A DNA stretch of 64,000 bases. It comes from Pseudomonadota bacterium (lineage in GTDB: Bacteria > Pseudomonadota > Alphaproteobacteria > UBA2136 > JAPKEQ01). Each line of letters begins with the position of its first letter. Positions within the stretch are counted from its first letter, which is position 1. Below, in pieces: positions 5,967 to 57,291 of this stretch. The DNA lies in the NCBI GenBank assembly GCA_036141575.1, contig JAYZXF010000017.1, positions 78,077-142,076 on the forward strand, written 5' to 3'. A program made the position numbers and the translations under genes. Below the pieces are notes generated by a model, which had not been told where the DNA came from, searched no databases, and saw nothing but the letters and a program-made list of their open reading frames with translations.

Positions 5967-7670
5967 TTAGTCATCCAAACCTGGACGAGTGTCATCAGTT
6001 ACGGGTTTCAGTGGGGTTACAACTTTTGGCGCTGTTGTTGTTTCTTCAATCTTAGCACCTGTTGCTGCGTCACCTTTCACAACACCAAACAGGAAGGCTC
6101 CTTCGTTCCAGAATTCTAGAGCGGCTTTCAGTTCGCTGTTGTAGCGGGCTGCACGTTGTAGAATTGTACGACCGTCAACACTTAGGTTATGACCTTCACC
6201 ACGGGCTTGTGCAATGGCTTCAATCGCCGTACGGCAAGCTGTTGCACCGCTGCCTAGGCCCCAAGGGTGACCCATTACTGATCCACCACACTGGATGATC
6301 ATGTCATCGCCCATTGCGTCCATCAGGCGAGGGAAGTGCCATGGGTTGTGTCCACCACCCACAGCAGGCCATACAGTGGCACCACCTACAGAGGGTTGGT
6401 CAAACATGATACCTGTTTCAACAGATGTTTTTGGTGCATCTTCAACAAGCATATCAACAATACCTTTCACGTGACGGCGGTTACCCGTATCACCACGCAG
6501 TGGACTACCGATACTTACCATGTCACAACCTGTGAAGCGAAGAAGCTTCGCAATCAGGCCTTCTGTCATTGTTGCGCTCATGAGGCTACGTCCGCCCATG
6601 GCACCAATAATCACATCGTTGTTCTGACACCAGTTCACCATGCTTGCAAGAGCACTCCAGCCGACAGCAGAGCTATCAACAATCATCATGTTGATGCCAA
6701 GCTCTTTTGCATATTCTGCACGAGCTGTCATATCTTCAACTGTTGGGGCACTAATGTTCACAGCGTGGTATTTCACTTCGCCCGTTTCTTGCTGTGCAGC
6801 AAAGGCAGCTTCAGCCACAAAACGGAAGCGACGGCGCCAGCTATTGTCTGGCAGGCTGTGCATCATGGTTGGGTCGGCAGTCATATCTACACCGCCTTTA
6901 AGTGTTTCGTACACCGCACGGCCGTACATCTTAGGTGATAGGCCGTTCATTGGGCGCATTGTGCTACTTAGCAGTGGGCGACCGTACTTGCTGGCAAGGT
7001 CACGCATACCAATCACACCGTATGAAGGTGTTTTAAATGTACGTGCAAGCCCAACAGGAATGCGGGCATCAACAATACGTGCACCTGTAGATGTAATAGG
7101 GGCACTGATCACGCTAATAAGGCTGACCATAGAGCCTGCTTCTACCATTTCTTGTGGGATGATCAGGCTTACGTTAACTGTAGAGCTATCTACGCGCTTT
7201 GTTTCAAGCAGTTTTACTTGTGGCACTGTCTCGTGGTCTACAAGAGAACCTGTCCAGCTTTCCACCCAGTCACCGTTTGCTGCGCTTACAAGAAGGTTAC
7301 CGCATTCGTTTTGGCTGAATGTTGTGTTCTCGTACTGGTAGCTAACAAGGATGTCTTGTTCTGGGTTAAAGCCTTGGTCTTCCTTACGGCGACCACGTGA
7401 GTCTGGCTTTTCATCAGTCGTTGGGGCTGCTACGGCTGCAAATGATGTCGTGCCGCCTGTTAGGCTGTCTAGCGATACACCAAGAACCGTGGCGATTTTA
7501 ACCACGTTATCTAGAGAAGGGCTTACTTGTCCGCCAAGGATGCGTGAGAGCGTTGCCATCGACACACCAGACTGGCGAGACAGGTCAGATGCAGACATGC
7601 CGTTCTTTTCCAAAATCTTTTTTAGAGCCTCAGGTAGGTTGTAAGGGCTCTCTGTTGTTTTCTTTGTCAT
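5967..7670 (-). CDS. XRE-family HTH fused to a RuBisCO large-subunit-like (non-catalytic) domain
   Basis: N-terminal Cro/C1 HTH ('MSASDLSRQSGVSMATLSRILGG'), then collinearity with Form I RbcL ('KYGRPLL', 'YGRAVYETLKGG', 'CGGSVMGHPWG'). Catalytic motifs are replaced, e.g. DFTKDDE becomes DMTADPT at 6867-6896. The ATG at 7670 has 'aaggaaa' upstream. Confidence 0.85.
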   Translation of the reverse strand: MTKKTTESPYNLPEALKKILEKNGMSASDLSRQSGVSMATLSRILGGQVSPSLDNVVKIATVLGVSLDSLTGGTTSFAAVAAPTTDEKPDSRGRRKEDQGFNPEQDILVSYQYENTTFSQNECGNLLVSAANGDWVESWTGSLVDHETVPQVKLLETKRVDSSTVNVSLIIPQEMVEAGSMVSLISVISAPITSTGARIVDARIPVGLARTFKTPSYGVIGMRDLASKYGRPLLSSTMRPMNGLSPKMYGRAVYETLKGGVDMTADPTMMHSLPDNSWRRRFRFVAEAAFAAQQETGEVKYHAVNISAPTVEDMTARAEYAKELGINMMIVDSSAVGWSALASMVNWCQNNDVIIGAMGGRSLMSATMTEGLIAKLLRFTGCDMVSIGSPLRGDTGNRRHVKGIVDMLVEDAPKTSVETGIMFDQPSVGGATVWPAVGGGHNPWHFPRLMDAMGDDMIIQCGGSVMGHPWGLGSGATACRTAIEAIAQARGEGHNLSVDGRTILQRAARYNSELKAALEFWNEGAFLFGVVKGDAATGAKIEETTTAPKVVTPLKPVTDDTRPGLDD

Positions 7671-7840
7671 TAAATTTTCCTTATATGGTAGCGAGCTACC
7701 ATTACGGTTATTCATTTACCTATTAAATGTAGTATCGCACAGGCTGTGCTTTTGCACAAATGGAAATATTGCAGATGTGGAAGAATTTCAAGGGCTGAAA
7801 TCAAAAAAATATCAAAAAAATAAAGGTGACTTTGTTTTTG

Positions 7841-8769: not shown

Positions 8770-9582
8770 ATGAGACACACAGTATGGATTGCGTCGTTGG
8801 CGCTTTTGTGTGCAGTAAATGCGCAAGCTTCAGAAGGAATTGCAAGGCAAATTCAGTCTCTTAAAACAGCAATGGATGGGTTTGCAGCAACTGCAAGAGC
8901 GCAAATTGCGTCCAATACAGCGAGTATTACTGAAAACGTAAGAATTATTGACTCTTTTGAGACCTGTGCTGAAAGCGGGATGATGTATGCCCCTGATGAT
9001 GTGACAGCGAATGCAGATGGCTGTAAGCGCGTCACCTCAACACAAGCGCTCAATGAAATTGATGTGTCAAGCCAGCTTGTGGCAACAGGCCGGTGGCTAC
9101 ACCCTTATAACTTTAGTGAGCATTCATCAAATGGGTCTCCATCAAAACGTGGCCGTTCTTATGCGCAGATTTATCGTATTAATGATCCTGATAATTATAA
9201 CAACTACCTGATTTCTGGTAATCTTTTTGGTGGTGGTAGTCGTTCTCATGATGAGGGTCAGTTCAGTTGTTGGAATGCTAATACTTATGTAAAGATTGGT
9301 AGTGGTTGGGTTTCTACAAACGGTGATTCTATTAAAATTGAACAGCTTGCCAATGTGTCTAAAACGCGTGTGGCAGGCCATGTTTATAATGGCACATTCC
9401 AAAACCAAATTGCGATTGTAAAGCGTACATCTCATAGCTGTTATAATAACGGAGGGGATTTAAATATGGGAATGAAGGTTAATTACATTACGTATCACAA
9501 TGGTATGAATGCACGTGCATCTTATCATGATAGTGACTCGCGAGCTTCAACACTGCGTGTGACAAACATTATTGGTTTTTAA
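8770..9582 (+). CDS. secreted coiled-coil protein, 'EGxxRQxxSLK' family (F1)
   Basis: Signal peptide ...AVNAQA, then 'SEGIARQIQSLKTAMDGF', a Cys loop 'CAESGMMYAP...DGC', and a C-terminal domain paralogous to 12170-13015. Confidence 0.75.
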   Translation: MRHTVWIASLALLCAVNAQASEGIARQIQSLKTAMDGFAATARAQIASNTASITENVRIIDSFETCAESGMMYAPDDVTANADGCKRVTSTQALNEIDVSSQLVATGRWLHPYNFSEHSSNGSPSKRGRSYAQIYRINDPDNYNNYLISGNLFGGGSRSHDEGQFSCWNANTYVKIGSGWVSTNGDSIKIEQLANVSKTRVAGHVYNGTFQNQIAIVKRTSHSCYNNGGDLNMGMKVNYITYHNGMNARASYHDSDSRASTLRVTNIIGF

Positions 9583-11998: not shown

Positions 11999-12169
11999 GT
12001 GTTTTCTCCTTAAAATGTACGAAAGATTACAGTAGTGATGAAATTGTGATCATCCCTTTAATGAAATTCAAGGTTTTGGGTGTTTTTTTTAGGAGATATG
12101 AGCTTGTGTGTTAACCTATAAGAGAAAGCAGGGTTATAAAAAAGAGGGGTCCCTTACAAAGTGAGGCAT

Positions 12170-13015
12170 ATGCTTAAAGTATCAGCATTAACTGCTGTGT
12201 GTGTGATTGGAATCGTGAATTATGTGCAAGCGAGTGAAGGAATTGCTCGTCAAGTACAAGCCTTAAAGTCCTCTATGGATAGTTTTGCTGCGACTGCTCG
12301 TGCTCAGCTTGCTGCTCAGGCGGTAAGCATTACAGAGAATGTACGTATGATTGACGCTTTTAAAACCTGTGCAGATAAAAACATGCTGTATACGCCTGAA
12401 AATCAGGCGGCAGATGTGGATGGCTGTTCTGCGATGTCTGGCTCTGGGGAAGTAAATGAAATTGATATGGCAACAGAGGTTGTGCCAACAAACCAATATT
12501 TTAATGTGGAACATGGCAGGGAGCAAACTGGAGGCGGTGGAGTAACTCGTGGCTCTCCTGCACGTATCTATCAGATTAATGACTCTGGAAATTATCAAAC
12601 ATATCAAGTTGTCGGTAATATCCGAGGCTGGGGTTGGCAATGGGATGATGAAGATCATGCTTATGACCATTGTTATGCTTATCAGCCTTATGTGAAAATT
12701 GGCGGGAGATGGCATGTCTCTGACTCTGATACTGTGACAATCCGTACTGTTGCAAACCAAAATAAAACCATTCTAAATGGCCGTATGGTGAATGGAAGTT
12801 TTGATAAAAGAATAGCTGTTGCTAAAGGAACAGCTTTCAGATGTGGTCGTCGTGGGGATACAAATGCTTTATATCAGATTTTTAATGATATGCGTAAGAG
12901 CCATGTGACTTGGTCTGATGCTTTAGCTTCTGGTCAAAGGGCTTGTTCTCATCATGACCCTCTTAATTGCAGAAATAGTGCATCGCTTGGTATACACTAT
13001 ATTGTTGGCTATTAA
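12170..13015 (+). CDS. secreted coiled-coil protein, 'EGxxRQxxSLK' family (F2)
   Basis: ATG at 12170 with GAGG upstream (the ORF track starts at GTG 12161). Signal peptide, 'SEGIARQVQALKSSMDSF', Cys loop 'CADKNMLYTP...DGC'. Full-length paralog of 8770-9582. Confidence 0.75.
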   Translation: MLKVSALTAVCVIGIVNYVQASEGIARQVQALKSSMDSFAATARAQLAAQAVSITENVRMIDAFKTCADKNMLYTPENQAADVDGCSAMSGSGEVNEIDMATEVVPTNQYFNVEHGREQTGGGGVTRGSPARIYQINDSGNYQTYQVVGNIRGWGWQWDDEDHAYDHCYAYQPYVKIGGRWHVSDSDTVTIRTVANQNKTILNGRMVNGSFDKRIAVAKGTAFRCGRRGDTNALYQIFNDMRKSHVTWSDALASGQRACSHHDPLNCRNSASLGIHYIVGY

Positions 13016-26827: not shown

Positions 26828-27100
26828 GCTTGCTTCCTGTCTTTTATTTTTCAAATATAAAATTTGTAAAATAAAATTCAACGCAAGCTAGAGTCTTGGT
26901 TTAAAACCTTCCTTGTAAAAACAGTACTCCGTCCTGCTTTTAGCTTTTTTAAACCGCCCAAAACGCCTGAACGTTTTGGTTCGGCTACTCGCCTCACACT
27001 CTCATAGGCCAACACTTCTATTGTGTCCTAGTACTTTGCGGAGCAAAGCGCAGCCGGCGCTTAAGGGCGCCGAGCGCAAAGGTACAAAGTAGGGTAAGCT
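26828..27100. repeat. structured intergenic repeat family, copy C
   Basis: Hairpin 26842-26876. Segment 26958-27040 is the reverse complement of B 58331-58409. Hairpin CCAAAACG/CGTTTTGG at 26958-26979. Confidence 0.75.
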
Positions 27101-27295
27101 GCAGAGCAGCCGTGCCTTTGCAAGATATAAATAAGGTGTTAAATGGCAGGCAGTGTGTCTGTGCGCAGGGCACCGCCTCAACCTGACAGGCCGAGAGTCA
27201 AGAAAGGAAAAAATAACCAAAACAGCTCTTGTCACTTAGGCAGATACACGTTAGTTTATTCCACATTCAAAAGTTTCAAAAATAAGGGATAAGTC

Positions 27296-27544
27296 ATGCA
27301 TATCGAGTCTGATCACGATAGACAAAAAGTAAAAGAATATTTCAAGCAAGCGCTGAACGTAAACCGCAGTGTTGAAGAAGCAAAAGCTGAACTGAAAGAT
27401 ATTCTAGACGTTCTTAACGAACAGCATGAAATCAAGCCATCAATTGCACGTAAAGTGATTAAAGCTATGGAGAAGGGCAACATGCCTGAGATCCGCCATC
27501 AGAACGAACAGTTCGAAGATCTTTACCAAGCAGTGATTCGCTAA
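27296..27544 (+). CDS. hypothetical small helical protein (82 aa)
   Basis: ATG with 'aaggga' upstream. Terminator 27567-27589. Confidence 0.5.
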   Translation: MHIESDHDRQKVKEYFKQALNVNRSVEEAKAELKDILDVLNEQHEIKPSIARKVIKAMEKGNMPEIRHQNEQFEDLYQAVIR

Positions 27545-27566
27545 GGTTGAATTGATCTTGACTTAA

Positions 27567-27589
27567 AAAGGCGCCACATTGGCGCCTTT
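27567..27589. terminator. bidirectional terminator
   Basis: AAAGGCGCC-acatt-GGCGCCTTT. Confidence 0.8.
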
Positions 27590-27608
27590 TTAAATGCGAC
27601 ATATCCCT

Positions 27609-27902
27609 CTATTGTAGTGGTATGCATGAGGATCCATTAAAAAGCATGCCATTATTGGCACATGAGTGAGAATGGCTCTGATTACTCGAGATGCGATCAG
27701 CATCAGCTCTCAAACTTGAGAGTTCTGTATCTAAGACATCAAGCTGACCTGCCAGCACGGTCTTCCAGCTTTTTAGAGCAATACTGAGCGTATTCACTTG
27801 TCTTGAAAGGTTTTCTGTTTCTGCTTTTTGTGCAAGGGCGTCTGCAGGGAATGCCAGCAGTGCCGGTGCTGTAAGTAGAATAAAGGCTTTCTTGAGTTTC
27901 AT
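27609..27902 (-). CDS. secreted minimal member of the 'xxSRQxxxL' coiled-coil family (F8)
   Basis: ATG at 27902 (MKLKKAFILL... signal peptide). 'ENLSRQVNTLSIALKSW', coiled coil, and it ends right after the Cys loop 'CANNGMLFNGSSC'. Confidence 0.6.
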   Translation of the reverse strand: MKLKKAFILLTAPALLAFPADALAQKAETENLSRQVNTLSIALKSWKTVLAGQLDVLDTELSSLRADADRISSNQSHSHSCANNGMLFNGSSCIPLQ

Positions 27903-27916
27903 ATCATGCACTCTTT

Positions 27917-28579
27917 TTAGCATTGCGTGCCGCTTGTGCAGCTTGCAGTTGGGTTTGAGATATTATTTGTATTGGCGTAGTTTAGATAATTGACTGTTTC
28001 TTCCACAGACATAGCACCTGTTGTGGCTTCATTAGAGCCTGCAATATGTTGGCGCACTTCTGCAGCGGCTTGCGCTGCTGTCATGCCTGAACCTTGAAGT
28101 CTGTCCATCTCACCTTGCCAAAAATGTGCTCCAGCTTGGTCTGGTGCGCGGCCGAGCTCATCGCTATAAATTGCGCAAAGCTCAGGTGATGCTGTGCATG
28201 TGTTTTGTGTTGGAGTTGGTGCTGAGGCAACAGTTGGTGCTGAAGCTGATGGGGCAGGCGCTGCGCTGGCTGTTGGTAGCCCTATGCAGTGCGAACCATT
28301 ATAAAGCATATGGCTGTTGGCACAGTCATATGCATTACTTTGTTGCTGAAGCAATCTATCTGCCTCTGTTCTCAATCCCGAAATACTATTGCTGAGTGCT
28401 GTAAGCTCACTGTTTACATTTTGACGAAAGCCGTCAATGGTATTTCTAAGTGAGCCAACTTGCCTAGAAACACCCTCAACAGGCGTGAGCTGTGCTTGAG
28501 ATTCTAGCGTTGTAAGTAGTAGTGTTGGTGTAATAGCAAGTAATGCTTTTCTAAGTAATGCTTTTCTGTTTTTTGACAT
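27917..28579 (-). CDS. secreted coiled-coil family member with DUF4214-like C-terminus (F7)
   Basis: Signal peptide, 'VEGVSRQVGSLRNTIDGF', Cys loop 'CANSHMLYNGSHC', an Ala/Pro linker, then 'IYSDELGRAPDQAGAHFWQGEM' (DUF4214-type motif). Confidence 0.7.
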   Translation of the reverse strand: MSKNRKALLRKALLAITPTLLLTTLESQAQLTPVEGVSRQVGSLRNTIDGFRQNVNSELTALSNSISGLRTEADRLLQQQSNAYDCANSHMLYNGSHCIGLPTASAAPAPSASAPTVASAPTPTQNTCTASPELCAIYSDELGRAPDQAGAHFWQGEMDRLQGSGMTAAQAAAEVRQHIAGSNEATTGAMSVEETVNYLNYANTNNISNPTASCTSGTQC

Positions 28580-41268: not shown

Positions 41269-42108
41269 ATGAGGTTATTTGCAATTGTATGTATGTGTTG
41301 CGCACTGTTTGTCAGTGTGGCAGCCGTTTCTCAAACACGTGCAGGTGAAGGACTTTCACGCCAACTTCAATCTGTAAAATCAATGCTTGAGAGTTTCCGT
41401 AGCCATATAGATGGTGAAATCGCTCGTGTGGATAGTGAAATTAATACAGTGGATAGCAGAGTAGATGCTGCAAATACTAGAATGGATACCATGGACGGTC
41501 GTATGGATGGTATAGACACTCAGATTGGTGGCCTAAACTCGAGTATTAATTCACACGATAACCGTATTACAGCCCTAGAAAATGGGGAAACAGGTGTGCA
41601 AGTTTACAGAAACTGTGCACAACGTAATGTGACATGGGGCAGTGGAAATTGCCGAGGTACGCAGGGGCCCATTCCTCATGGCACAAGTATAACGGTTAGA
41701 GACACCGTTCAAGGTGATATTTGTACAAATAGATATCAATATGTTGGCTATGCTGTGTATAGTTGTAATGATGGTGTGGTAACGCGTAACGGGCAAGCTT
41801 GTCAGCGAACAGATTTCTACAATGAAAATCTATGTGAATCTGGCAGTGGTGGCGATAGCTATGCAAACTGTCAAGGTACAACAAGGACATGGTCAGAAAC
41901 GTATAATGGTCTAACTTCAACCTGTTCTGGATCAATTGGTTCTGTGCCACATGGTACAACCGCTACAGCAACAGACCCTAGAACTGGTTGTGACCGTCGA
42001 GACTTCACAGGTGGATCATCGACTTGGCTATGTGATAATGGTACTCTCAGAAGACAAGGTACTGCAACATGTAGAACCTGGGGCAGCTGGGGTAGCGACT
42101 GTCGATAA
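41269..42108 (+). CDS. secreted coiled-coil family member with 2 x 4-Cys modules (F3)
   Basis: Signal peptide, 'GEGLSRQLQSVKSMLESF', an Lpp-like repeat 'VDSEINTVDSRVDAANTRMDTMDGRMD', and Cys modules at 41614-41802 and 41869-42072. Ends in 'DCR'. Confidence 0.75.
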   Translation: MRLFAIVCMCCALFVSVAAVSQTRAGEGLSRQLQSVKSMLESFRSHIDGEIARVDSEINTVDSRVDAANTRMDTMDGRMDGIDTQIGGLNSSINSHDNRITALENGETGVQVYRNCAQRNVTWGSGNCRGTQGPIPHGTSITVRDTVQGDICTNRYQYVGYAVYSCNDGVVTRNGQACQRTDFYNENLCESGSGGDSYANCQGTTRTWSETYNGLTSTCSGSIGSVPHGTTATATDPRTGCDRRDFTGGSSTWLCDNGTLRRQGTATCRTWGSWGSDCR

Positions 42109-42288
42109 TTGAATAAATGAAAGCAGAAAAGGAGGGCACATGCCCTCCTTTTTGCAACAGGGGATATATTTATTTTTCTTGAAGTATCAATGTATTGCAA
42201 TTTTTACTCACCTATTTGTCAGGGATATGTTTATTTAAAGTTGTGGTTATATATATAAATAAAATGTGATTTATAAAAGGGGTTTAAA

Positions 42289-43374
42289 ATGAGAGCTTTT
42301 CCGATAGTAATGATTTTATCCTGTTTAGTTTTACTAACAGGCGTAGCTGGTGCGCAGAGCACGCGCTCTGGTGAAGGTATTGCAAGGCAGTTAATGTCTG
42401 TTAAAAGTATGATTGAAAATTTTGCTGATAACATCCGCACACGTGTGCAGACCGTTGAAAATGAAATGGATGCGGTAGAAACACGTATGGATACAGTGGA
42501 AGCTGATGTTGCAAGCGTACTTGCAACCGTTGCAACACATGAAACACGGTTGAGCTCGCATGATTCATCTCTATCTGGCCATGGTCGCCGTATTCGAGCA
42601 CTCGAAGAGCGCGAGCCAACAGGTGGTGGAGGTAGTACAGCACCAACACCAAGTGCGTGTAACGGTAGAAACATGTCATGGGGAGGGGGATGTAGTGCTT
42701 ATGTACAATCTCTACCTGATGGGGGTGCTGTCGTTCTGAGAGATCAAGTTGCTGGTGATGTATGTACAAATAGACAGCAGTATGTTGGTCAAGTTCGTGT
42801 GGCTTGTAACAATGGTCAAATTTCTACAAAGAACGCCTCTTGTGAGCTGAGAAACGTTTATAACGCAACTCAGTGTAGTGGTGGCACAACACCAACACCG
42901 AAGAAGAGATGTGCAGCAAAAGATGTGAGCTGGAAGAACAATGCTGGTACAGTCACATGTCGTGGTAGAATTGTTGCAGCTGATCATGATTCAACACGTC
43001 GTGTAACATTTGATAACAACAATACAAAACCTGGTGGAAAACGTATTACTGGTGCAGCAAACTTTATTTGTGACAACGGTGTGTTCAAACGTACATCTAA
43101 GAACTGTAAAGAAACTGTTAACCCTGAGCCTCCTAAGCCTTGTGCAGGCAAGTCTGTGAGTTGGACTAGTAATGGTGTTACATGTCGAGGAACTGTTTCG
43201 AATACGCCACATGGTTTAACTTCAAGTGTAACAGACCCTAACCGAACACGAGAGTGTGAGAACATTATAGATACAACAGGTAGCGCAAGCTTCAGGTGTA
43301 CAAATGGATCGTTCAAGAAGGTCTCTGGCTCTTGCAGGCAGGTACGGAGTCGTCGAACAGGTGACTGTCGATAA
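42289..43374 (+). CDS. secreted coiled-coil family member with 3 x 4-Cys modules (F4)
   Basis: Signal peptide, 'GEGIARQLMSVKSMIENF', a coiled coil, and three Cys modules between 42658 and 43335. Ends in 'DCR'. Confidence 0.75.
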   Translation: MRAFPIVMILSCLVLLTGVAGAQSTRSGEGIARQLMSVKSMIENFADNIRTRVQTVENEMDAVETRMDTVEADVASVLATVATHETRLSSHDSSLSGHGRRIRALEEREPTGGGGSTAPTPSACNGRNMSWGGGCSAYVQSLPDGGAVVLRDQVAGDVCTNRQQYVGQVRVACNNGQISTKNASCELRNVYNATQCSGGTTPTPKKRCAAKDVSWKNNAGTVTCRGRIVAADHDSTRRVTFDNNNTKPGGKRITGAANFICDNGVFKRTSKNCKETVNPEPPKPCAGKSVSWTSNGVTCRGTVSNTPHGLTSSVTDPNRTRECENIIDTTGSASFRCTNGSFKKVSGSCRQVRSRRTGDCR

Positions 43375-43434
43375 GGACTCTATAAAAGAAAGCGGCGCAA
43401 GAGCGCCGCTTTTTTGTAACTCGAACGGCTCGCT

Positions 43435-43992
43435 TTATTTACATGGATCTGATGAGTAAGAACAAACTGGATTAGAAATAACAAAGTCACCATTACGACA
43501 AGTTACTGTAGCAGAGCCTGAAATATGGTTACCACAACGTGGGCGTGGGTGGGTAACTGTTGCAGTATCACCTTCATTGGCACCCCATGCAGTACTTGTA
43601 CATGTTGGATTACCATAGGCACCAGTCCATTGCACAGGTCTGCTTGTACAGCCAGACACTGTTCCAGAGCTGCCTGTCATATCATCGTGGGAAACGCAGC
43701 CTCGTCCATCTGCATCTGGGTGTGTTGGCCAGTGAATGCTTGGATCACCAGATGTATTGATACATGCTGTTCGTTGGTTCTCTCGTGTTTCAAGATTTGT
43801 TACACTGTTTTCAACGTTTGTCATGCGGGGTCTCATATCATTTGCAAATGCTTCCATCATATTTTTAAGAGATGTAAGCTGTCTGCTGATACCTTCACTT
43901 GTACGTGTCTGTGCATCAGAGTTAGAAATAACGATGAGGGATGCTGTTGTGAGAATTGCCGTAAAAATGAGGCAAGATTTTTTCAAATTCAT
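43435..43992 (-). CDS. secreted coiled-coil family member with 1 x 4-Cys module (F5)
   Basis: Signal peptide, 'SEGISRQLTSLKNMMEAF', loop 'CINTSGDPSIHWPTHPDADGRGC', and one Cys module. Ends in 'DPCK'. Confidence 0.72.
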   Translation of the reverse strand: MNLKKSCLIFTAILTTASLIVISNSDAQTRTSEGISRQLTSLKNMMEAFANDMRPRMTNVENSVTNLETRENQRTACINTSGDPSIHWPTHPDADGRGCVSHDDMTGSSGTVSGCTSRPVQWTGAYGNPTCTSTAWGANEGDTATVTHPRPRCGNHISGSATVTCRNGDFVISNPVCSYSSDPCK

Positions 43993-44104
43993 AATCTTTA
44001 TCCTTTACTTTTACCGGTTGATGCTACGCCTGTGTATGGGGGTGGTCAAATTAAAAAATGAAAAAGACCTAGAAAAATCTAGGCCTTATCACGTTTAAGT
44101 TGTT

Positions 44105-45106
44105 TTATTGAGGTTCACCATTATGCTCTTTAGAGAGTGGGTATTTTCCTTTTTTGTCTGGAATAGAGCCGTGGACAAGAATACCGTTTGCATAGTAAGT
44201 GTGGTCACCATCTAGCATAAGGTTGTAGAGGCGGCGGTCTTCTTCTTCCTGTGGGACAATCATGATGGATTCAATAAGCTGACGCTTGCCTTGTGCCATA
44301 ATGAGTGTTTGGCCAATTTCAAGCTGACCAATGTTACCAGAAAGTTGGTCGTAAGCTTCTTTCTCAGCCATATCTGGGTTAAGGGCCTTCCAGCCGTCTG
44401 TTGTCATAAGAGGGTGGTTATCTGTTGTAAAGGCAGTTTCACCGTTAATCTCAATAAGGTGCTGGTTTTTACCTTTGCGCAGAAGAGGGCGGTCAAGGTC
44501 TAGCACGGTGTTAATTGCACCGTCACGGCCCATCAGCTTATCACCAATTTTAACTTTATGAATTTCAAGGTCACTACCATCCGCCATAAGTACTTTTGTT
44601 TCAGCCGTAAAGCATGAGCCGCGGCAAACTGCTGCACAATTTTCCATACTATTAGGCGTTAGGTTTGTATTACAGCGGCAGGCACATCTCCACCCCACCC
44701 AAACTTGGTCGCTTGGGCATGTAGGAGGCGTGTAGGTGCCACCACCTGTTGGGCCTTCAATATCTGTATGTGTTACACAGTTATTGCTATCAGCATCTGG
44801 ATGGTTTGGCCAATACAGGCTTGTTGTTGATCTGTTATGGCAGAACGTTTGCCTATTAATAACTGTCTGGAGGTCTGAAATATCCGTTTGTGCTGTTGAG
44901 AGCTGTGTTTCTAGAGTGCTAATTCTAGAGCTCATGCCAGTAGACATGCTTTCCATCATGTTTTTAAGGGAGAGAACTTGCCTTGAAAGTGCTTCACCCG
45001 CACTTGTTTGTGCCCATACATTGGCAGCTAAAATGATTGTGCAAAGAGAGAGAAAGATTGCAATGGATTTAAGTATTTTACCCTTGAAAAACATAGTGGC
45101 CACCAT
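44105..45106 (-). CDS. secreted coiled-coil family member with C-terminal Hint/BIL domain (F6)
   Basis: 'AGEALSRQVLSLKNMMESM', loop 'CHNRSTTSLYWPNHPDADSNNC', then Hint blocks 'CFTAETKVLMADG', 'TTDNHPLMT' and 'HTYYANGILVHGS'. The start is at 45106 or 45094. Confidence 0.75.
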   Translation of the reverse strand: MVATMFFKGKILKSIAIFLSLCTIILAANVWAQTSAGEALSRQVLSLKNMMESMSTGMSSRISTLETQLSTAQTDISDLQTVINRQTFCHNRSTTSLYWPNHPDADSNNCVTHTDIEGPTGGGTYTPPTCPSDQVWVGWRCACRCNTNLTPNSMENCAAVCRGSCFTAETKVLMADGSDLEIHKVKIGDKLMGRDGAINTVLDLDRPLLRKGKNQHLIEINGETAFTTDNHPLMTTDGWKALNPDMAEKEAYDQLSGNIGQLEIGQTLIMAQGKRQLIESIMIVPQEEEDRRLYNLMLDGDHTYYANGILVHGSIPDKKGKYPLSKEHNGEPQ

Positions 45107-50848: not shown

Positions 50849-52951
50849 GTGATGGCTATAAAAAGAACAAGAAATATCGTCCTAAGCGCTGTTTTAACGG
50901 CGGTTTTCTTGCATTCTGAAAGCCTTTACGCACAAAATTTCCCAGATAGCGCTCGTACAGAAAGCATTCTAAAGAGCTTAGAGCCTGTCAAAACACCTGA
51001 TGCAGACCTTGAGAGAAGCACGCTTCCAGATAAACCTGAGCCTATAGCCACACAACCAAAGGCACAGGAAAAGTCTGACAGCGAGCCACAAAAGGCTGAT
51101 ACAAAAGATGAAAAACTTCCTGACGTAGAGACAGAGGATATCAGTAGCGGTCTTGGTATCGCCAAAATTCAAAAAGCTGTGCCGTCTGAGCCTGAGTTTG
51201 AGGTAAAAACCATTGAGGTGAAGGGAAGTACTGTATTTGATGAGCGGGCACTTCGTCCATACCTTGCTGCGATGGAAGGAGACTGGCAAACCTTGTCTAA
51301 ACTTAAAGGCCTAGCCGACACACTGACACGCTTGTACCAATCTGAAGGGTACATTTTGTCGCGTGTGGTGGTGCCAGCGCAGGAAATTACATCTGGCCAC
51401 GTTGTTCTACAAGCGGTGGAAGGCAGCATTCAAGATATTCACTTTGTGGGTGATCTCCCAGAAGAGGGACGCTTGATCCAGAAGTATGCAGAAGAAATTA
51501 AAAAGTCAGTGCCTCTTAACATTAAGCAACTTGAGCGCTCAACGCTTCTTATGAATGACCTACCGGGTCTGAGCGCAAAGGCGGTACTTAGCCCTGCAAA
51601 AGATGTGACACAGCGTTTTGAAACGGGTGTAGATACAACGCAGCAAAGCTATAAGCTTCGTCAAACGCTCAAAGCGATGGGGCTTACTGAAAACCAAATT
51701 GGTAACTATGTGGATATTGTTGGCGCTGTACAGGCTGCTAATGTGAAGCAAGTTCAAGCGACAGACCTATCTCTCATCCTGCAAGGTATGGGTATTCCTG
51801 ATAACCAACGTAAGATTCTTGTAAAGAAAGCTGTTGAAGCTTCAGACCGTAACCGCTTGCAAAGCAATACACAGCAAGTGACAGAAGCACTCGTGTCTCT
51901 ATCTGACCTCAATATTTACATTGAGAGCAAAGAGAAAACAGCAAGCCTAGCCATTGATAACTTCGGAACCAAGTTTGTGGGCCCAATTCAAGTGACGGGT
52001 GCGCTGAGTATTGCCCATGACGATGAGGCCCGTAGTGAAACCTCTCTAGGCTTTAGTACATCTGCTGATATGAAAGAGATGAAGTTTGGTGAAATTAAGC
52101 ACAAACGCCAAATTGGCGATAAAGGAACCACTGTAGAAGGGACATACAGTATTGCACGCTCTGAGCCGGGCAGCACGCTTGCTGACCTTGAGTTTGAAAG
52201 TGCATCTGATGTAATTGGCGTAACGGTAGAACATCCTGTAATCCGTAGCCGTAGTAAAAACCTAAAGGTTCGTGCCACAGCTGATGCGCGTAGCAGTGAG
52301 GTGAAAACACTTGGTGACCGCTTTAGTAAAGATACCACGCGTAGTGTGCGCCTTGGTGCAACATATGACTTTGCTGATGAGTACAAAGGAATCAACCTTA
52401 TTGATGTGGAATTGAGTAAAGGCCTAGATATTCTTGGTGGTGACGATAGATCAACAACGTCACGTGCAGATGGCCAGCAGGACTACACAAAGGTTGCTGC
52501 TCAGCTTTCGCGTCTGCAACGACTTGGTAAGTTTACCAACCTTCTCGCCACTGTACGCGGTCAGTATGCCTTTAACCCACTTCTAGCGAGTGAAGAGTTT
52601 AGCTTTGGTGGCGCGTCTCAGGGGCGTGGATTTGACCCAGCAGAGCTTACGGGTGACCATGGTATTGGCGGTACACTACAGCTTTCGTATGACTTGCCAA
52701 TGTGCCGTAAGTGCCTGAAAGATATTAGTATGTACGGTTTCTATGATGCGGGTATGGTCTGGGAAGAAAATGGCGGTACTGGTGATGATAGAAGCTTTGC
52801 TTCAAGTGCGGGTCTTGGTGCAAGTATGAACTTTACAGATAAGCTTAGCGGTAAGATTGAGTTTGCCAAGCCTTTGGTTGGTTCGCGTGGCAATGATAGC
52901 GAAGATGCAAAAGCACCTGTGGTGTTAATGCGCCTAAAAGGACAATTATAA
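50849..52951 (+). CDS. two-partner secretion outer-membrane transporter (ShlB/FhaC/HecB family TpsB)
   Basis: Signal peptide. POTRA 'IEVKGSTVF...LYQSEGYILSRVVVPAQEITSGHVVLQAVEG'. C-terminal beta-barrel. Directly upstream of tpsA. GTG at 50849 or ATG at 50852. Confidence 0.85.
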   Translation: MMAIKRTRNIVLSAVLTAVFLHSESLYAQNFPDSARTESILKSLEPVKTPDADLERSTLPDKPEPIATQPKAQEKSDSEPQKADTKDEKLPDVETEDISSGLGIAKIQKAVPSEPEFEVKTIEVKGSTVFDERALRPYLAAMEGDWQTLSKLKGLADTLTRLYQSEGYILSRVVVPAQEITSGHVVLQAVEGSIQDIHFVGDLPEEGRLIQKYAEEIKKSVPLNIKQLERSTLLMNDLPGLSAKAVLSPAKDVTQRFETGVDTTQQSYKLRQTLKAMGLTENQIGNYVDIVGAVQAANVKQVQATDLSLILQGMGIPDNQRKILVKKAVEASDRNRLQSNTQQVTEALVSLSDLNIYIESKEKTASLAIDNFGTKFVGPIQVTGALSIAHDDEARSETSLGFSTSADMKEMKFGEIKHKRQIGDKGTTVEGTYSIARSEPGSTLADLEFESASDVIGVTVEHPVIRSRSKNLKVRATADARSSEVKTLGDRFSKDTTRSVRLGATYDFADEYKGINLIDVELSKGLDILGGDDRSTTSRADGQQDYTKVAAQLSRLQRLGKFTNLLATVRGQYAFNPLLASEEFSFGGASQGRGFDPAELTGDHGIGGTLQLSYDLPMCRKCLKDISMYGFYDAGMVWEENGGTGDDRSFASSAGLGASMNFTDKLSGKIEFAKPLVGSRGNDSEDAKAPVVLMRLKGQL

Positions 52952-53016
52952 ACAACTGACAGGCGGAAACATTAATAAAACCGCTTATAAGAACTTAAGG
53001 AAAGTAAAACATTAAC

Positions 53017-56000
53017 ATGCTGAAAATGTTGAGGGAAAGTAAGAGTCTAACGGCCCGTTATATCCGTGGTCTGCTTTCTGCTGTGCTGACATTTTCACCG
53101 GTACTTTCTTATGCTGGCCCAACTGGCGCGGCAGTTCAAAGTGGCAATATCATTATTTCTCAGCCAGATGCAGCAAGTACACTTATCCAGCAAGGTACCC
53201 ATAAAGGGATCATTAACTGGCAAGACTTTTCCATTGGTGCAGGTGAGAGTGTTCAGTTCCAAGTGCCTTCAGCTCAGGCAAAAACATTAAACCGTGTAAT
53301 CGGTCATAATGTTTCTGATATCCAAGGCGCACTCAGCAGTAATGGACAGCTTTATCTTGTAAACCCGAACGGGGTGATCTTTGGGGCTGGCTCTCGCGTA
53401 GATGCGGCAGGCCTCCTGGTTACAACTTCTAATGTTTCAGATGAAGATTTCCTAAATAACTTTTTGAATTTACAAGAGGCTTCTGAAGGTTCTGCCATTG
53501 TGAACAATGGTGATATCTCGATTAAAGATGGCGGCTTTGCCTTGCTTGTTGCCCCACAAGTGGTGAACAACGGAACCATTATTGCGCGCTTTGGTAAAGT
53601 GGGTATTGGTGCAGGTTCTAAAGGAACCATTGATCTTTATGGTGATGGGTTGATTCAGTTTGAACCATCAAGCGATGTTGCAAATCTTGTGAATAACGGC
53701 GTCATTCGCGGTGGTTATGTAGAGCTAACCGCAGCAGATGTAGACGCCCTCCTTAAAGGTGTTGTGCGTGTAAACGGTTTTGTAAGTGCAGACCATGTGG
53801 TGATTGAAGGGGGCGAAAACTCTATTGTACGCCTGAATGGTTCAGTCATAGCGCAGCGTGAAGCTGAGCAAATTGGTGGTCGCGTAGATGTACTGGGTGA
53901 CCTAGTTTCTCTACTTGAAAATACTGATATTGATGTTTCTGGTGAACTTGGCGGTGGTCAAGTCCATGTGGGTGGAGACTACCAAGGTAAAGGTACGCTT
54001 AAAACAGCTACAACTACATATATGACTGCAGGCGCAGAGATTGATGCCAGTGCTATCCGTATGGGTGATGGTGGTAAAGTGATTCTTTGGGCTGATGGCA
54101 CCACACACTTTGCAGGCGATATTGTCGCGACTGGTGGTTCTGATGGCGGTGATGGTGGTTTTGTTGAAACCAGTGGTAAGGGGCAACTTGCCTACCGTGG
54201 TGCAGTGGATGTAACTGCTGAAAATGGTGATATTGGTTCACTGCTTCTTGACCCTGAAAATATTACAATTTCATCTGATCCATTTACACCAACTGATCTG
54301 GCAGGTGGTGTGTATTGGTTTGACCCAAGCGCCGTTGGTGGTGTGAACACAACGGGTAGCAATGTGACTCAGATTAATGACCTGATTCCAGGCGTGGGTG
54401 GTTCTAATAACGCCACGCAAGGCTCTGCAGCTCTTCAAGCTGAACTTGTAGCAGCAGGCCTTAACGGTCGTGATGCGCTCGATTTTGATGGCGCAGATGG
54501 TTATGACATGGCCAACAATGCATCTATCAACACCTCAGGAAGTACCGACCGTATTATCCTCATTGCCTTTAGAACAGGCGCAGACGTAACAAGCCAGCAG
54601 TACCTGTATGAGCAGGGTGGTGGCTCTAACGGTTATGGTATGTATATTGAGGCAGGGCAACTTGTTGTCGCGGGTTGGCGTAACAGTAGCGGTAGCTGGA
54701 ACAACTACGCAACAACTGCAGTTACACCAAATACCACTTACGTGGCAGGTTTAAACCTAGATAACAACACCATGAGTGCATGGGTAAACGGCGATAAGTT
54801 CCAAACATATAACAACACCAATGGCCAAAATGCCCATAGTGGTGGTATTGACCTCGGTCGTAACGGAGATACCCGTGACGCTTCAGGGAGCCTTGGCGCT
54901 TGCTGTAACTTCCTTGGTCAGATAGGTGAAGTAATTCAGTACAACACAGCCGCAACAGATGCTGAAATGCAGGAAGTGTCTCAGTATCTTGCGCTTCAGT
55001 GGGGTGCAACGCTAGATTCACCAGGCACAGATTACACAATTTCACTTGAGAACCTAGAGGCACAGCTTGCTGGCGCAAACATTACCCTTCAGGCTGAAGA
55101 TAACATCACCATTGATGATATTGCTGATGATAGCCTAGACCTTGCCATGGACGGCACAGGCAGCTTTACACTGATTGCTGATAATGATGCAGACGGTGTG
55201 GGTACCATTAGTATGGACGCCTCAGACGCCATTGTGACCCAAGGTGGTGATATCACCATGACGGGTGCCGTGATTGATGTGAATAATATTACAAGTAACG
55301 GCGGTGACGTAACACTCAGCGCAACAGCAGCCCTTACAGCCGATGTAATTAATGCCGGTGCAGGTAACATTGCCCTGACAGCTGACAGCAATAACGATAG
55401 CGCAGCTGTGGCTCTTACAACGTCTGATCTGACTGCTGATGGCATTACGCTAACTGGTGGGTCGGATAATGATGATATTCTCAACCTCTCTGGCACCATT
55501 AGCAGTGGAGCGGGGGGCTTAAGTCTCAATAATTTTGCAAGTGGTGACCTCGATAACGCCACAATTGATACAAATGGCCAAGCCTTTAACAGTGCCATTA
55601 ACTTTACGCTAAGCGGCGCAGGGGTAAGTACGATTCAAACTGGCGGTGGTGATATTACGCATTCTGGAACCTTTGATGGTACGGAAGGACTTATTTTAAA
55701 CGCTGGCGCTGGTAATATTGACCTCAGTGGTGCAGCTGGTGGTGGTACAGCTCTAACCAGCCTCACAGCAACAGGTTCTACTATTCAGCTGGATGATGTG
55801 ACAACGGTTTGGCATCAAAACTATACGGGTGCAACCACAACCAATGGCGACCTTGCTGCCACGGGTGCAGGTAATGTGCGCTTTGTAAATAATGTTACGT
55901 TGGGTGCGGATACCAACATCACAACCAATACTGGAGATATTGACTTTGGCGGCACGGTTGATGGTGGGCAAGCGCTTGTGCTAAATTCGACATCTGGTGA

Positions 56001-57291
56001 TTTGATTACGACAGGTGACTTTGGTGGCGGTGCAGCACTGACATCTTTGAATGTGGGCACAGCCAATGCCGACCTACAAGAAGTGACAACAACGGGCGGC
56101 ATTACAGTTTCTGGTATTACAACATATAACGATGACCTTAACGCTGGCGGCGCATTAAATCTATCAGGTACAGGTACGCTTGCTGCTGATACAGTCTTCC
56201 AAAGTACGGGCGGCGGTATTGTAACGCTTGGCGGCACTCTTAATGGTGCCCAAAACCTAACGGTTACAACAGGTGGGCTTTTAAATCAGGGCGCAACAAT
56301 TGGGGGCGGTACACGCCTTACAAGCCTTACTTTAAATGGAGCAAACACACAGCTTACCGGTGATATCTACACAGCGAATGCTCTCAGCTTTGGCCTGAAT
56401 ACCAACCTTGGTGCACGTGTGGACTCTCTAGATACGGTCATATTTAACAACGCCCTAACGCTTGCGGGTGCAAGTACTGTTGTAGGAGCTAATGGTATTA
56501 CCTTTAACGATACCGTTAATGGGGCACAAGATCTAACTGTAGAAAGTTCAGCAGGTGACATTAGCTTTGCAGGTAATGTGGGGAATAGTTCTGCCCTGAA
56601 TACGCTGACAATTACAGATACAGGCAACCTTACATTTGGTGCCGATGTGACCCTTGCAGCGCTTGACCAGCAAGCTGGCCGTGCAACAACAAGCCTTGGC
56701 TCTAACTTTAACAGTACTGGTAACGTAGATATTCTTGGTGTGAATATTAATGGTGATATTCTCAGCGCTGGGGATGTGATGTTTAATGTAACAGGGAGCG
56801 TCACAGGTCAATTGTTTGCAAACAGCTTTGCACTCCAAGCAGAAAACAGTGACCAAACCGGTGAAGTGAATAGTATTGGCGGCTTGGATGCTCTAAAAGA
56901 GATTCAGTTTACGCAGTTTGGTGCAGGCCCACACTTGTTTAACGGCTTTATTCTACCGTATGAAACCATTATTCAAGCCACATCTACTGGATATGAAACA
57001 ACGCAAATTAACCGTGCGGGTCGCTCGCTATCTGGTGGCTTTGTAAGAACCATTTCAGATCTACCAGATCTTGAGATTCTTAAGAGTGCAGGGCGTGCAC
57101 GTGTAAGCCGCATTGCGCCAACAGATGCCAGCTTTGCTAAACTTGCTCTAGGTTCAGATAATAGCCTCGTTGTGAACCCTTTCCTTATGGACTTTAGAAG
57201 TGTGGATATTGAACCTGGCACAGAGCTCTTCTATAACCCATACCCATACCTAGAAAAGAGCGTGTGGAACTGGCTCTCTTACAGAGACTAA
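53017..57291 (+). CDS. filamentous-haemagglutinin-like TpsA exoprotein with internal LamG-like domain
   Basis: TPS domain 'INWQDFSIG...LNRV...LSSNGQLYLVNPNGVIFG', beta-helix repeats, and a ConA/LamG-like insert around aa 480-650 ('LYEQGGGSNGYGMYIEAGQLVV'). Confidence 0.88.
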   Translation: MLKMLRESKSLTARYIRGLLSAVLTFSPVLSYAGPTGAAVQSGNIIISQPDAASTLIQQGTHKGIINWQDFSIGAGESVQFQVPSAQAKTLNRVIGHNVSDIQGALSSNGQLYLVNPNGVIFGAGSRVDAAGLLVTTSNVSDEDFLNNFLNLQEASEGSAIVNNGDISIKDGGFALLVAPQVVNNGTIIARFGKVGIGAGSKGTIDLYGDGLIQFEPSSDVANLVNNGVIRGGYVELTAADVDALLKGVVRVNGFVSADHVVIEGGENSIVRLNGSVIAQREAEQIGGRVDVLGDLVSLLENTDIDVSGELGGGQVHVGGDYQGKGTLKTATTTYMTAGAEIDASAIRMGDGGKVILWADGTTHFAGDIVATGGSDGGDGGFVETSGKGQLAYRGAVDVTAENGDIGSLLLDPENITISSDPFTPTDLAGGVYWFDPSAVGGVNTTGSNVTQINDLIPGVGGSNNATQGSAALQAELVAAGLNGRDALDFDGADGYDMANNASINTSGSTDRIILIAFRTGADVTSQQYLYEQGGGSNGYGMYIEAGQLVVAGWRNSSGSWNNYATTAVTPNTTYVAGLNLDNNTMSAWVNGDKFQTYNNTNGQNAHSGGIDLGRNGDTRDASGSLGACCNFLGQIGEVIQYNTAATDAEMQEVSQYLALQWGATLDSPGTDYTISLENLEAQLAGANITLQAEDNITIDDIADDSLDLAMDGTGSFTLIADNDADGVGTISMDASDAIVTQGGDITMTGAVIDVNNITSNGGDVTLSATAALTADVINAGAGNIALTADSNNDSAAVALTTSDLTADGITLTGGSDNDDILNLSGTISSGAGGLSLNNFASGDLDNATIDTNGQAFNSAINFTLSGAGVSTIQTGGGDITHSGTFDGTEGLILNAGAGNIDLSGAAGGGTALTSLTATGSTIQLDDVTTVWHQNYTGATTTNGDLAATGAGNVRFVNNVTLGADTNITTNTGDIDFGGTVDGGQALVLNSTSGDLITTGDFGGGAALTSLNVGTANADLQEVTTTGGITVSGITTYNDDLNAGGALNLSGTGTLAADTVFQSTGGGIVTLGGTLNGAQNLTVTTGGLLNQGATIGGGTRLTSLTLNGANTQLTGDIYTANALSFGLNTNLGARVDSLDTVIFNNALTLAGASTVVGANGITFNDTVNGAQDLTVESSAGDISFAGNVGNSSALNTLTITDTGNLTFGADVTLAALDQQAGRATTSLGSNFNSTGNVDILGVNINGDILSAGDVMFNVTGSVTGQLFANSFALQAENSDQTGEVNSIGGLDALKEIQFTQFGAGPHLFNGFILPYETIIQATSTGYETTQINRAGRSLSGGFVRTISDLPDLEILKSAGRARVSRIAPTDASFAKLALGSDNSLVVNPFLMDFRSVDIEPGTELFYNPYPYLEKSVWNWLSYRD

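Follow-up and report, generated by a model that had tools for sequence, protein, structure and literature searches.

An apparent in-frame loss of the head in a tandem pair of predicted stalk proteins from a Pseudomonadota metagenome-assembled genome

Introduction

Two neighbouring genes, F7 and F8, encode proteins that share an N-terminal module and differ in what follows it: F7 continues through a linker into a head, and F8 ends almost at once. The locus raises the question of what a headless F8 might be: a subunit built without a head, a site at which heads are exchanged, a protein that has lost its head and is still made, or the relic of a gene whose working part is gone. Here, the pair is considered within the 64-kb window (the whole stretch of DNA that was analysed, 64,000 nt) and in comparison with its relatives in other assemblies.

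Organization of the gene pair

F7 and F8 are arranged in tandem, with a gap of 14 nt between the stop codon of F7 (27917-27919) and the ATG of F8 at 27902 (Table 1). An alternative ATG at 27923 would yield a 104-aa form of F8 with a 7-nt overlap with F7. The shorter form, of 97 aa, is more likely, because the F8 orthologues of other lineages begin at the position equivalent to the 27902 ATG and a Shine-Dalgarno-like AAGAG site lies 8 nt upstream of it. The peptides quoted in the first-pass annotation, namely VEGVSRQVGSLRNTIDGF, CANSHMLYNGSHC, CANNGMLFNGSSC, the Ala/Pro linker and IYSDELGRAPDQAGAHFWQGEM, are all found in the translations.

Table 1. Coordinates of the F7/F8 pair, its neighbours and its paralogues in the window
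Feature	Position	Strand	Description	Basis
F7 coding sequence	27917-28579	minus	220 aa; signal peptide, N-module, linker, helical head	ORF list
F7 signal peptide	28490-28579	minus	aa 1-30; predicted cleavage SQA/QL	read from sequence
F7 N-module	28286-28489	minus	EGVSRQV motif, heptad helix, disulfide-framed beta-hairpin CANSHMLYNGSHC (28286-28324)	
F7 linker	28199-28285	minus	aa 99-127; Ala/Pro/Ser/Thr-rich, predicted disordered	
F7 head	27920-28198	minus	93 aa, five-helix, Cys-framed (CTASPELC...SCTSGTQC)	
DUF4214-like unit within F7 head	28016-28186	minus	aa 132-188	hhalign
DUF4214-type motif of F7	about 28106-28171	minus	IYSDELGRAPDQAGAHFWQGEM	translation
F8 coding sequence	27609-27902	minus	97 aa; signal peptide and N-module, nothing further	ORF list
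F8 signal peptide	27831-27902	minus	aa 1-24; predicted cleavage ALA/QK	read from sequence
F8 Cys loop	27624-27662	minus	CANNGMLFNGSSC; family-invariant residues retained	
F8 deletion junction and stop	27609-27617	minus	CTA CAA TAG	DNA alignment with L005
Hairpin terminator common to F8 and the convergent gene	27563-27593	none	-23.2 kcal/mol, z -4.5	inverted repeat I2
Convergent 82-aa gene	27296-27544	opposite to F8	64 nt from F8	
Six further family ORFs	8770-9582, 12161-13015, 41269-42108, 42289-43374, 43435-43992, 44105-45106			phmmer

The hairpin behind F8 is kept in L005, a relative at 80% DNA identity, where compensatory changes turn GGCGCC into GGTGCC/GGCACC; it was passed over by the terminator scan, as A/T pairs lengthen its stem, and was revealed by RNA folding. 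A promoter scan found no sigma-70-like site close to F7/F8. Because this conserved hairpin sits between F8 and the convergent 82-aa gene, F7 and F8 have the appearance of one transcription unit, and the tandem pair is probably co-transcribed.

The window F8 is identical to MEC9292332.1, which is listed at NCBI as a 'hypothetical protein' of a Pseudomonadota metagenome-assembled genome. The gene order pntAB, F7, F8, 82-aa gene and ybjQ is kept in three lineages, of which lineage A comprises the window and L001-L004 (about 95% DNA identity), lineage B comprises L005-L011 (about 80% identity; labelled as Magnetococcales or Alphaproteobacteria metagenome-assembled genomes) and lineage C comprises L012-L014. 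The syntenic orthologues of F7 are 90% (P0001), 54% (P0002) and 56% (P0003) identical to it, and its dN/dS against L001 is 0.20. The F7 signal peptide contains a perfect 15-nt tandem duplication (28538-28567, minus strand) that encodes RKALL twice and is missing in a 95%-identical relative, whose F7 orthologue P0001 is 215 aa long.

Further features were recorded elsewhere in the window. Rfam and tRNA scans of all 64 kb returned no matches. A GC-rich intergenic stretch of about 300 nt (26940-27240) is present in lineage A (window and L001) and absent from lineage B; shuffled sequences fold less stably than this stretch (z -2.6), which has no Rfam match and may be a small RNA or an insertion remnant. 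A 582-aa ORF (5967-7715, minus strand) joins an N-terminal HTH_3 domain (aa 31-84) to a RuBisCO large-subunit catalytic domain (3.5e-62), a fusion that is an unusual architecture for a RuBisCO-like protein. Positions 50849-57291 (plus strand) hold a two-partner secretion pair, in which a TpsB transporter (ShlB/POTRA_2, 700 aa) precedes a TpsA of 1424 aa that has a TPS domain.

A shared N-terminal module with a heptad-stepped stalk

The earlier description of F7 and F8 as divergent members of one family is borne out by their 38% identity over the N-terminal ~95 residues (phmmer E 2e-16). Both also match the six further ORFs of the window (E 2e-7 to 4e-3 against these paralogues), and the similarity among all of these is far beyond chance. 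The family N-module consists of a signal peptide with an AxA-type site, the motif EG[ILV][SA]RQ at the mature start, a heptad helix and a Cys-framed loop; F7 and F8 each have the signal peptide, the EGxSRQ motif, the heptad stalk and a C-x11-C hairpin. In the stalk helix, hydrophobic core residues recur every 3.5 positions, and the AF2 model of F7 has one long helix (residues 33-88) and a beta-hairpin at the Cys loop (91-100), at pLDDT 83-89. The 'anchor' of the first-pass annotation, if meant as a membrane anchor, is not supported, since this segment resembles an ordinary cleavable Sec signal peptide (ALA/Q and SQA/Q sites and no lipobox Cys).

No model for the N-module was found in Pfam, NCBIfam or PHROGs. 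NCBIfam and PHROGs likewise hold no model for F7 or F8, and they returned only coiled-coil noise, in the longer-stalk paralogues. A Foldseek search of the PDB with the full-length F7 model returned nothing with an E value below 7. Weak similarity to helices of retroviral Env and influenza HA2 (E 0.4-0.9), seen with the N-module, was dismissed as coiled-coil noise. An exhaustive search of 1.84 billion representative proteins with a profile of the eight window N-modules gave 103 matches, about 50 of which are single, N-terminal matches in proteins of 78-460 aa with very different C-termini, the rest being repetitive coiled-coil proteins. The same profile recovers P0011, which is F8 itself, at 7.5e-22 and the F7 orthologue P0002 at 1.5e-12. 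The N-module thus appears, from these searches, to define a previously undescribed family of about 50 clusters of modular proteins with predicted Sec export.

In 40 of the 49 members in which this spacing could be measured, the motif and the first Cys lie 37, 44, 51, 58, 65 or 72 residues apart, and these whole-heptad steps imply that stalks change by whole heptads, as a coiled coil in register with the neck requires. There is also a minor series that is offset by 3-4 residues (34, 41, 62, 69). In F7 and F8 of lineages A, B and C alike, 51 residues separate the motif from the Cys and the loop is 11 residues long. This equality of stalk and loop is a necessary, though not sufficient, condition for mixed assemblies of the two proteins. 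It is only past the loop that they part, four residues remaining in F8 versus 28-300 in the other 48 members, F7 with its C-terminal head among them.

Several other members of the family have features of their own. The 44105-45106 protein (minus strand) bears a Hint/intein-like head (PF05203, 4e-13; TIGR01443 intein C-terminal motif) with nothing after it, and P0030 (392 aa) carries the same head on a longer stalk; self-cleavage at the CFTAE site would free the stalk. Four members are clustered on both strands at 41269-45106, and three of them contain repeats of a Cys-rich module (C-x4-[VM]-x-W...HG...C) that has no Pfam match. Among the relatives outside the window, two look frameshifted or split beside their full-length counterparts, namely P0019 (146 aa) beside P0021 (266 aa) and L017:997-1767 beside L016:470-1240; each is either a pseudogene or the product of misassembly in a short contig.

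The head of F7 and its relation to DUF4214

The tip of F7 had been called DUF4214-like, a label that can be kept for homology and has to be dropped for formal membership. Against Pfam PF13946 (DUF4214), F7 scores 16.2 bits (E 0.011) and does not reach the gathering threshold of 23.2 bits. Its orthologues score 17.3-20.6 bits (E 5e-4 to 5e-3), and the same profile positions are matched in all of them. When eight head sequences were aligned by hhalign with 13 repeats of unrelated DUF4214 proteins, a probability of 97.2% and an E value of 3.3e-11 were obtained over head columns 5-61, and a profile that includes the long forms of F8 matches the ApcE linker repeats in the PDB (E 5.6e-7). At the level of these profiles, 'DUF4214-like' is correct as a statement of homology for the F7 head, which is not a member by the Pfam threshold.

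Modelled alone, the F7 head forms a confident five-helix bundle (pLDDT 88, pTM 0.78) that may resemble phycobilisome-linker domains, and residues 104-126 of the linker have pLDDT values below 50 in the AF2 model. The head is most likely a binding module. The literature on DUF4214 is thin, and functional data were found in a single preprint of 2026, in which the RTX-DUF4214 protein Psh of Pseudomonas putida is reported to bind O-antigen (bioRxiv 10.64898/2026.09.02.748959). Because of this precedent, glycan binding is a reasonable lead for the F7 head, and by analogy LPS or another surface glycan would be the best candidate target, as a lead only.

Origin of the headless F8

The statement that F8 stops directly after its Cys loop proved accurate, as the reading frame ends four residues past the hairpin. 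Whether F8 orthologues carry tips was a question left by the first-pass annotation, and in the other lineages they do. The syntenic orthologues are 271 aa (L005, L010, L011; P0004) or 270 aa (P0005, L014) long, and F8 orthologues and relatives in lineages B, C, D and E span 266-282 aa. In lineages B and C they comprise the N-module, a linker, a 93-aa head as in F7 and an extra canonical DUF4214 repeat, and it is mainly through this C-terminal repeat that the long orthologue scores 54.9 bits against PF13946, above the threshold. P0021 of lineage D and P0028 of lineage E, which are more distantly related, have the long two-unit architecture too.

The N-module of the window F8 is 51-57% identical to those of the long F8 orthologues versus 38-42% to those of F7 proteins, and the window F8 is therefore a true orthologue of the long proteins. 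Among the heads, F7 proteins are 68-74% identical to one another, the two F8 heads 85%, and F7 and F8 heads 62-69%, with the heads of D and E falling outside both groups; these identities and the position of the D and E heads indicate that the long form is ancestral. F7 appears to have arisen by duplication before the A/B/C split, losing the second repeat, and lineage A subsequently lost all F8 sequence past the neck.

At the DNA level, the window and L005 differ here by one clean gap of about 520 nt (~522 nt, about 174 codons). The junction reads CTA CAA TAG in the window, and the long form of L005 (lineage B) ends in GGG CAA TAG. Because the junction matches the 3' end of the long form, the deletion preserved the reading frame and spared the final codon together with the stop and the terminator. 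Judged by these alignments, the headless F8 is an in-frame deletion derivative specific to lineage A, a history at odds with the suggestion, based on the bare stalk, that F8 is a purpose-built cap or scaffold subunit; the DNA alignment and the N-module and head identities all point to the loss. A frameshifted tip, which had been envisaged downstream of F8, is not there, as only 64 nt with the terminator hairpin precede the convergent gene, and a tblastn search of the 64-kb window found no second head or DUF4214 repeat and no frameshifted remnant. The source of the sequence is a metagenome-assembled genome, and a short F8 could in principle be an artefact of assembly or binning; this is extremely improbable, given that the identical junction occurs in the window, in L001 (on a 1.26-Mb contig), in L002-L004 (NCBI assemblies) and in Logan assemblies, and that two alleles exist.

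Maintained gene or relic

The short F8 gene is intact in at least five assemblies (that of the window and L001-L004), with two alleles, and it keeps every family-invariant residue. Its dN on the lineage A branch is about 0.21, versus about 0.20 and 0.19 for the head-bearing orthologues of B and C, dS among the lineages being saturated. Because the gene is intact in these assemblies and the protein is not evolving faster, the short F8 protein is probably still made, and a still-expressed product is judged, from the sequence comparisons, about twice as likely as a dead relic. The clean junction is a weak sign of function, as one in three random deletions would be in frame.

An alternative is that F8 is a functionless relic, the deletion having removed the working part too recently for decay to set in, and we regard this as unlikely but worth serious weight. 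Every other family member (~50 representatives) keeps at least 28 residues past the loop and F8 alone has four, and the F8-type relatives outside lineage A are all head-bearing. In addition, the window F8 and L001 differ by only four substitutions, two of them synonymous and two nonsynonymous, a number on which neutrality cannot be rejected, and low divergence is commonplace in the neighbourhood: 9.8% of the neighbouring 291-nt segments have four or fewer differences from L001, and local dS is also low (0.03). Because so many nearby segments are equally similar, the comparison of F8 with L001 cannot separate selection from a low-divergence patch. Purifying selection on F8 after the deletion was accordingly not retained as a conclusion, as the substitutions are too few and low-divergence patches too common for the test to have power.

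The relic explanation nevertheless has to accommodate that the window and L001 separated after the deletion, with dS of 0.1-0.24 accumulated in flanking genes since that separation, and that F8 has acquired no stop or frameshift and only two amino-acid changes. It also has to accommodate a dN on the F8 branch that is not above that of the head-bearing orthologues, and a gene that has kept its start codon and Shine-Dalgarno-like site, an intact signal peptide, all invariant residues, and the native stop with its terminator.

A low-divergence patch relative to L001 extends over 27599-28151, in which F8 and the F7 head have dS of 0.03 and 0.10 versus 0.19-0.24 in the flanking housekeeping genes; recent recombination, or nucleotide-level constraint, could account for the patch.

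Tip exchange

The first-pass annotation had also raised the possibility that F8 is a recipient site for tip exchange. F8 would then be a landing pad for a programmed process in which recombination grafts heads, as invertases do in phage tail-fibre genes. The family is modular, one N-module bearing many unrelated heads and some heads recurring on stalks of different length, and a gene for a serine recombinase adjoins the F8-type gene in the distant lineages D and E, both of which are in keeping with such a process. At F7/F8 itself, however, there is no recombinase near the pair in the window, no inverted or direct repeat of useful length around it (inverted repeats over 15 nt are absent), and no silent head cassette detectable by tblastn in the whole 64 kb. 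Downstream of F8 there is room for nothing beyond the 64 nt and the terminator, and the structure of the locus is identical in five lineage A assemblies. A search for invertible segments around F7/F8 and around the recombinase-linked relatives returned short, chance-level matches only, and the D/E loci, which lack convincing invertible segments, lie in island-like contexts. Programmed tip exchange at the F7/F8 locus is rejected, and we give the landing-pad idea scarcely any credence.

In the distant loci, a convergent serine recombinase (Resolvase and HTH_7 domains) follows the long F8-type gene at L015:2778-3350, L016:2189-2809 and L017:2716-3147. The L015 context looks like a mobile island, because a type I restriction-modification system also follows the recombinase.

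Proposed architecture and role

Taken together, we consider it probable that F7 and F8 are an exported pair of coiled-coil stalk proteins, of which F8 lost its head by in-frame deletion, retained the stalk and neck, is probably made, and acts, if at all, with F7. Both proteins would be exported by Sec, their signal peptides being predicted to be cleaved. The mature protein would begin with the EGxSRQ motif, which would be followed by the heptad-repeat helix as a stalk, most likely a parallel coiled coil, and by a short beta-hairpin that would close the stalk as a neck locked by a disulfide. In F7, a flexible Pro/Ala linker would present the small five-helix head of the DUF4214 / phycobilisome-linker type.

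The ancestor of F8 was a longer protein, with an F7-type head and a second canonical DUF4214 repeat, until one in-frame deletion (about 522 nt) took the linker and both units, so that the neck now runs straight into the final codon, which the native stop and terminator follow. The mature headless F8 would be 73 aa long and consist of the N-terminal motif, stalk and neck, with stalk and loop exactly as long as those of F7. If F8 acts, it might co-assemble with F7 or compete for a shared partner, either of which could lead to fewer heads per assembly. The headless protein may thus dilute heads, or it may occupy the docking partner of the conserved N-terminal motif.

A broader proposal is more speculative, and as a whole we think it rather improbable: the N-module would define a new secreted family, with EGxSRQ as docking motif, a heptad-stepped stalk, a disulfide neck and freely exchangeable heads, serving as a surface or host-interaction toolkit of one uncultured group of Pseudomonadota, and the headless F8 would be maintained by selection as a natural dominant-negative or spacer subunit that tunes the number of DUF4214-type heads through co-assembly with F7.

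Significance

Current understanding is unchanged unless the headless F8 proves functional. The sister lineages offer a natural experiment, in which the same stalk occurs with and without a head, in a family that no database describes. The variation of the stalk by whole heptads, and the conservation of the motif with which the mature protein begins, suggest that assembly follows a defined geometry, which is directly testable. Furthermore, the family could provide a route to the function of the widespread DUF4214 domain, on which the earliest functional data (O-antigen binding) are just beginning to appear. The undescribed N-module family with its heptad-quantised geometry is a more interesting by-product of the analysis than the F7/F8 pair.

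Comparison with known systems

Polymorphic secreted and toxin-like families, including pretoxin-HINT architectures, resemble the window family in that eight paralogues within 64 kb have a common N-module and differing C-termini, and in that the 44105-45106 protein ends in a Hint domain (PF05203, 4e-13). Unlike these families, the window family has no recognisable toxin/immunity pairs and no T5, T6 or T7 trafficking domain, its proteins are small (97-361 aa), and the Hint domain is terminal, with nothing beyond it to release. Tip switching of the Gin/Cin/Hin type is likewise not found at F7/F8, recombinases being confined to the distant loci L015-L017.

DUF4214 (PF13946) and phycobilisome-linker-like domains occur, for example, in S-layer and RTX-type secreted proteins. 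The F7 head has the signature Y-x3-LGR-x-PD-x2-G-x2-[FY]W of these domains and helices that align to canonical repeats, and the DUF4214 proteins are all secreted, as F7 is predicted to be. In contrast to them, the unit in F7 has an inserted RLQGSG, a C-terminal extension of ~35 residues and a frame of two Cys pairs; only one copy of it is present, carried on a putative coiled-coil stalk, in place of tandem repeats that follow RTX, Ig or enzyme domains; and its export would depend on a predicted Sec signal peptide instead of a type I secretion signal.

The third comparison is with trimeric stalk-and-head proteins (phage tail needles and fibres, reovirus sigma-1, collectins) and, for the headless form, with Braun's lipoprotein Lpp. 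No significant sequence or fold match to the stalk-and-head proteins extends beyond a generic long helix, and no counterpart of the C-x11-C neck hairpin or of the EGxSRQ motif was found. Unlike tail needles, tail fibres and Lpp, F7 and F8 have no lipobox Cys and no phage context. For Lpp (PF04728) the E values are 0.22 (F8) and 0.03 (P0003), far below the cut-off, and there is no Cys in or after the signal peptide. The likenesses lie in size and plan: at 73 aa, mature F8 is close to Lpp in size, the family gives weak coiled-coil matches to tail-needle and Lpp profiles, and with the trimeric stalk-and-head proteins it shares a conserved N-terminal part, a heptad stalk that varies in length and an exchangeable C-terminal head.
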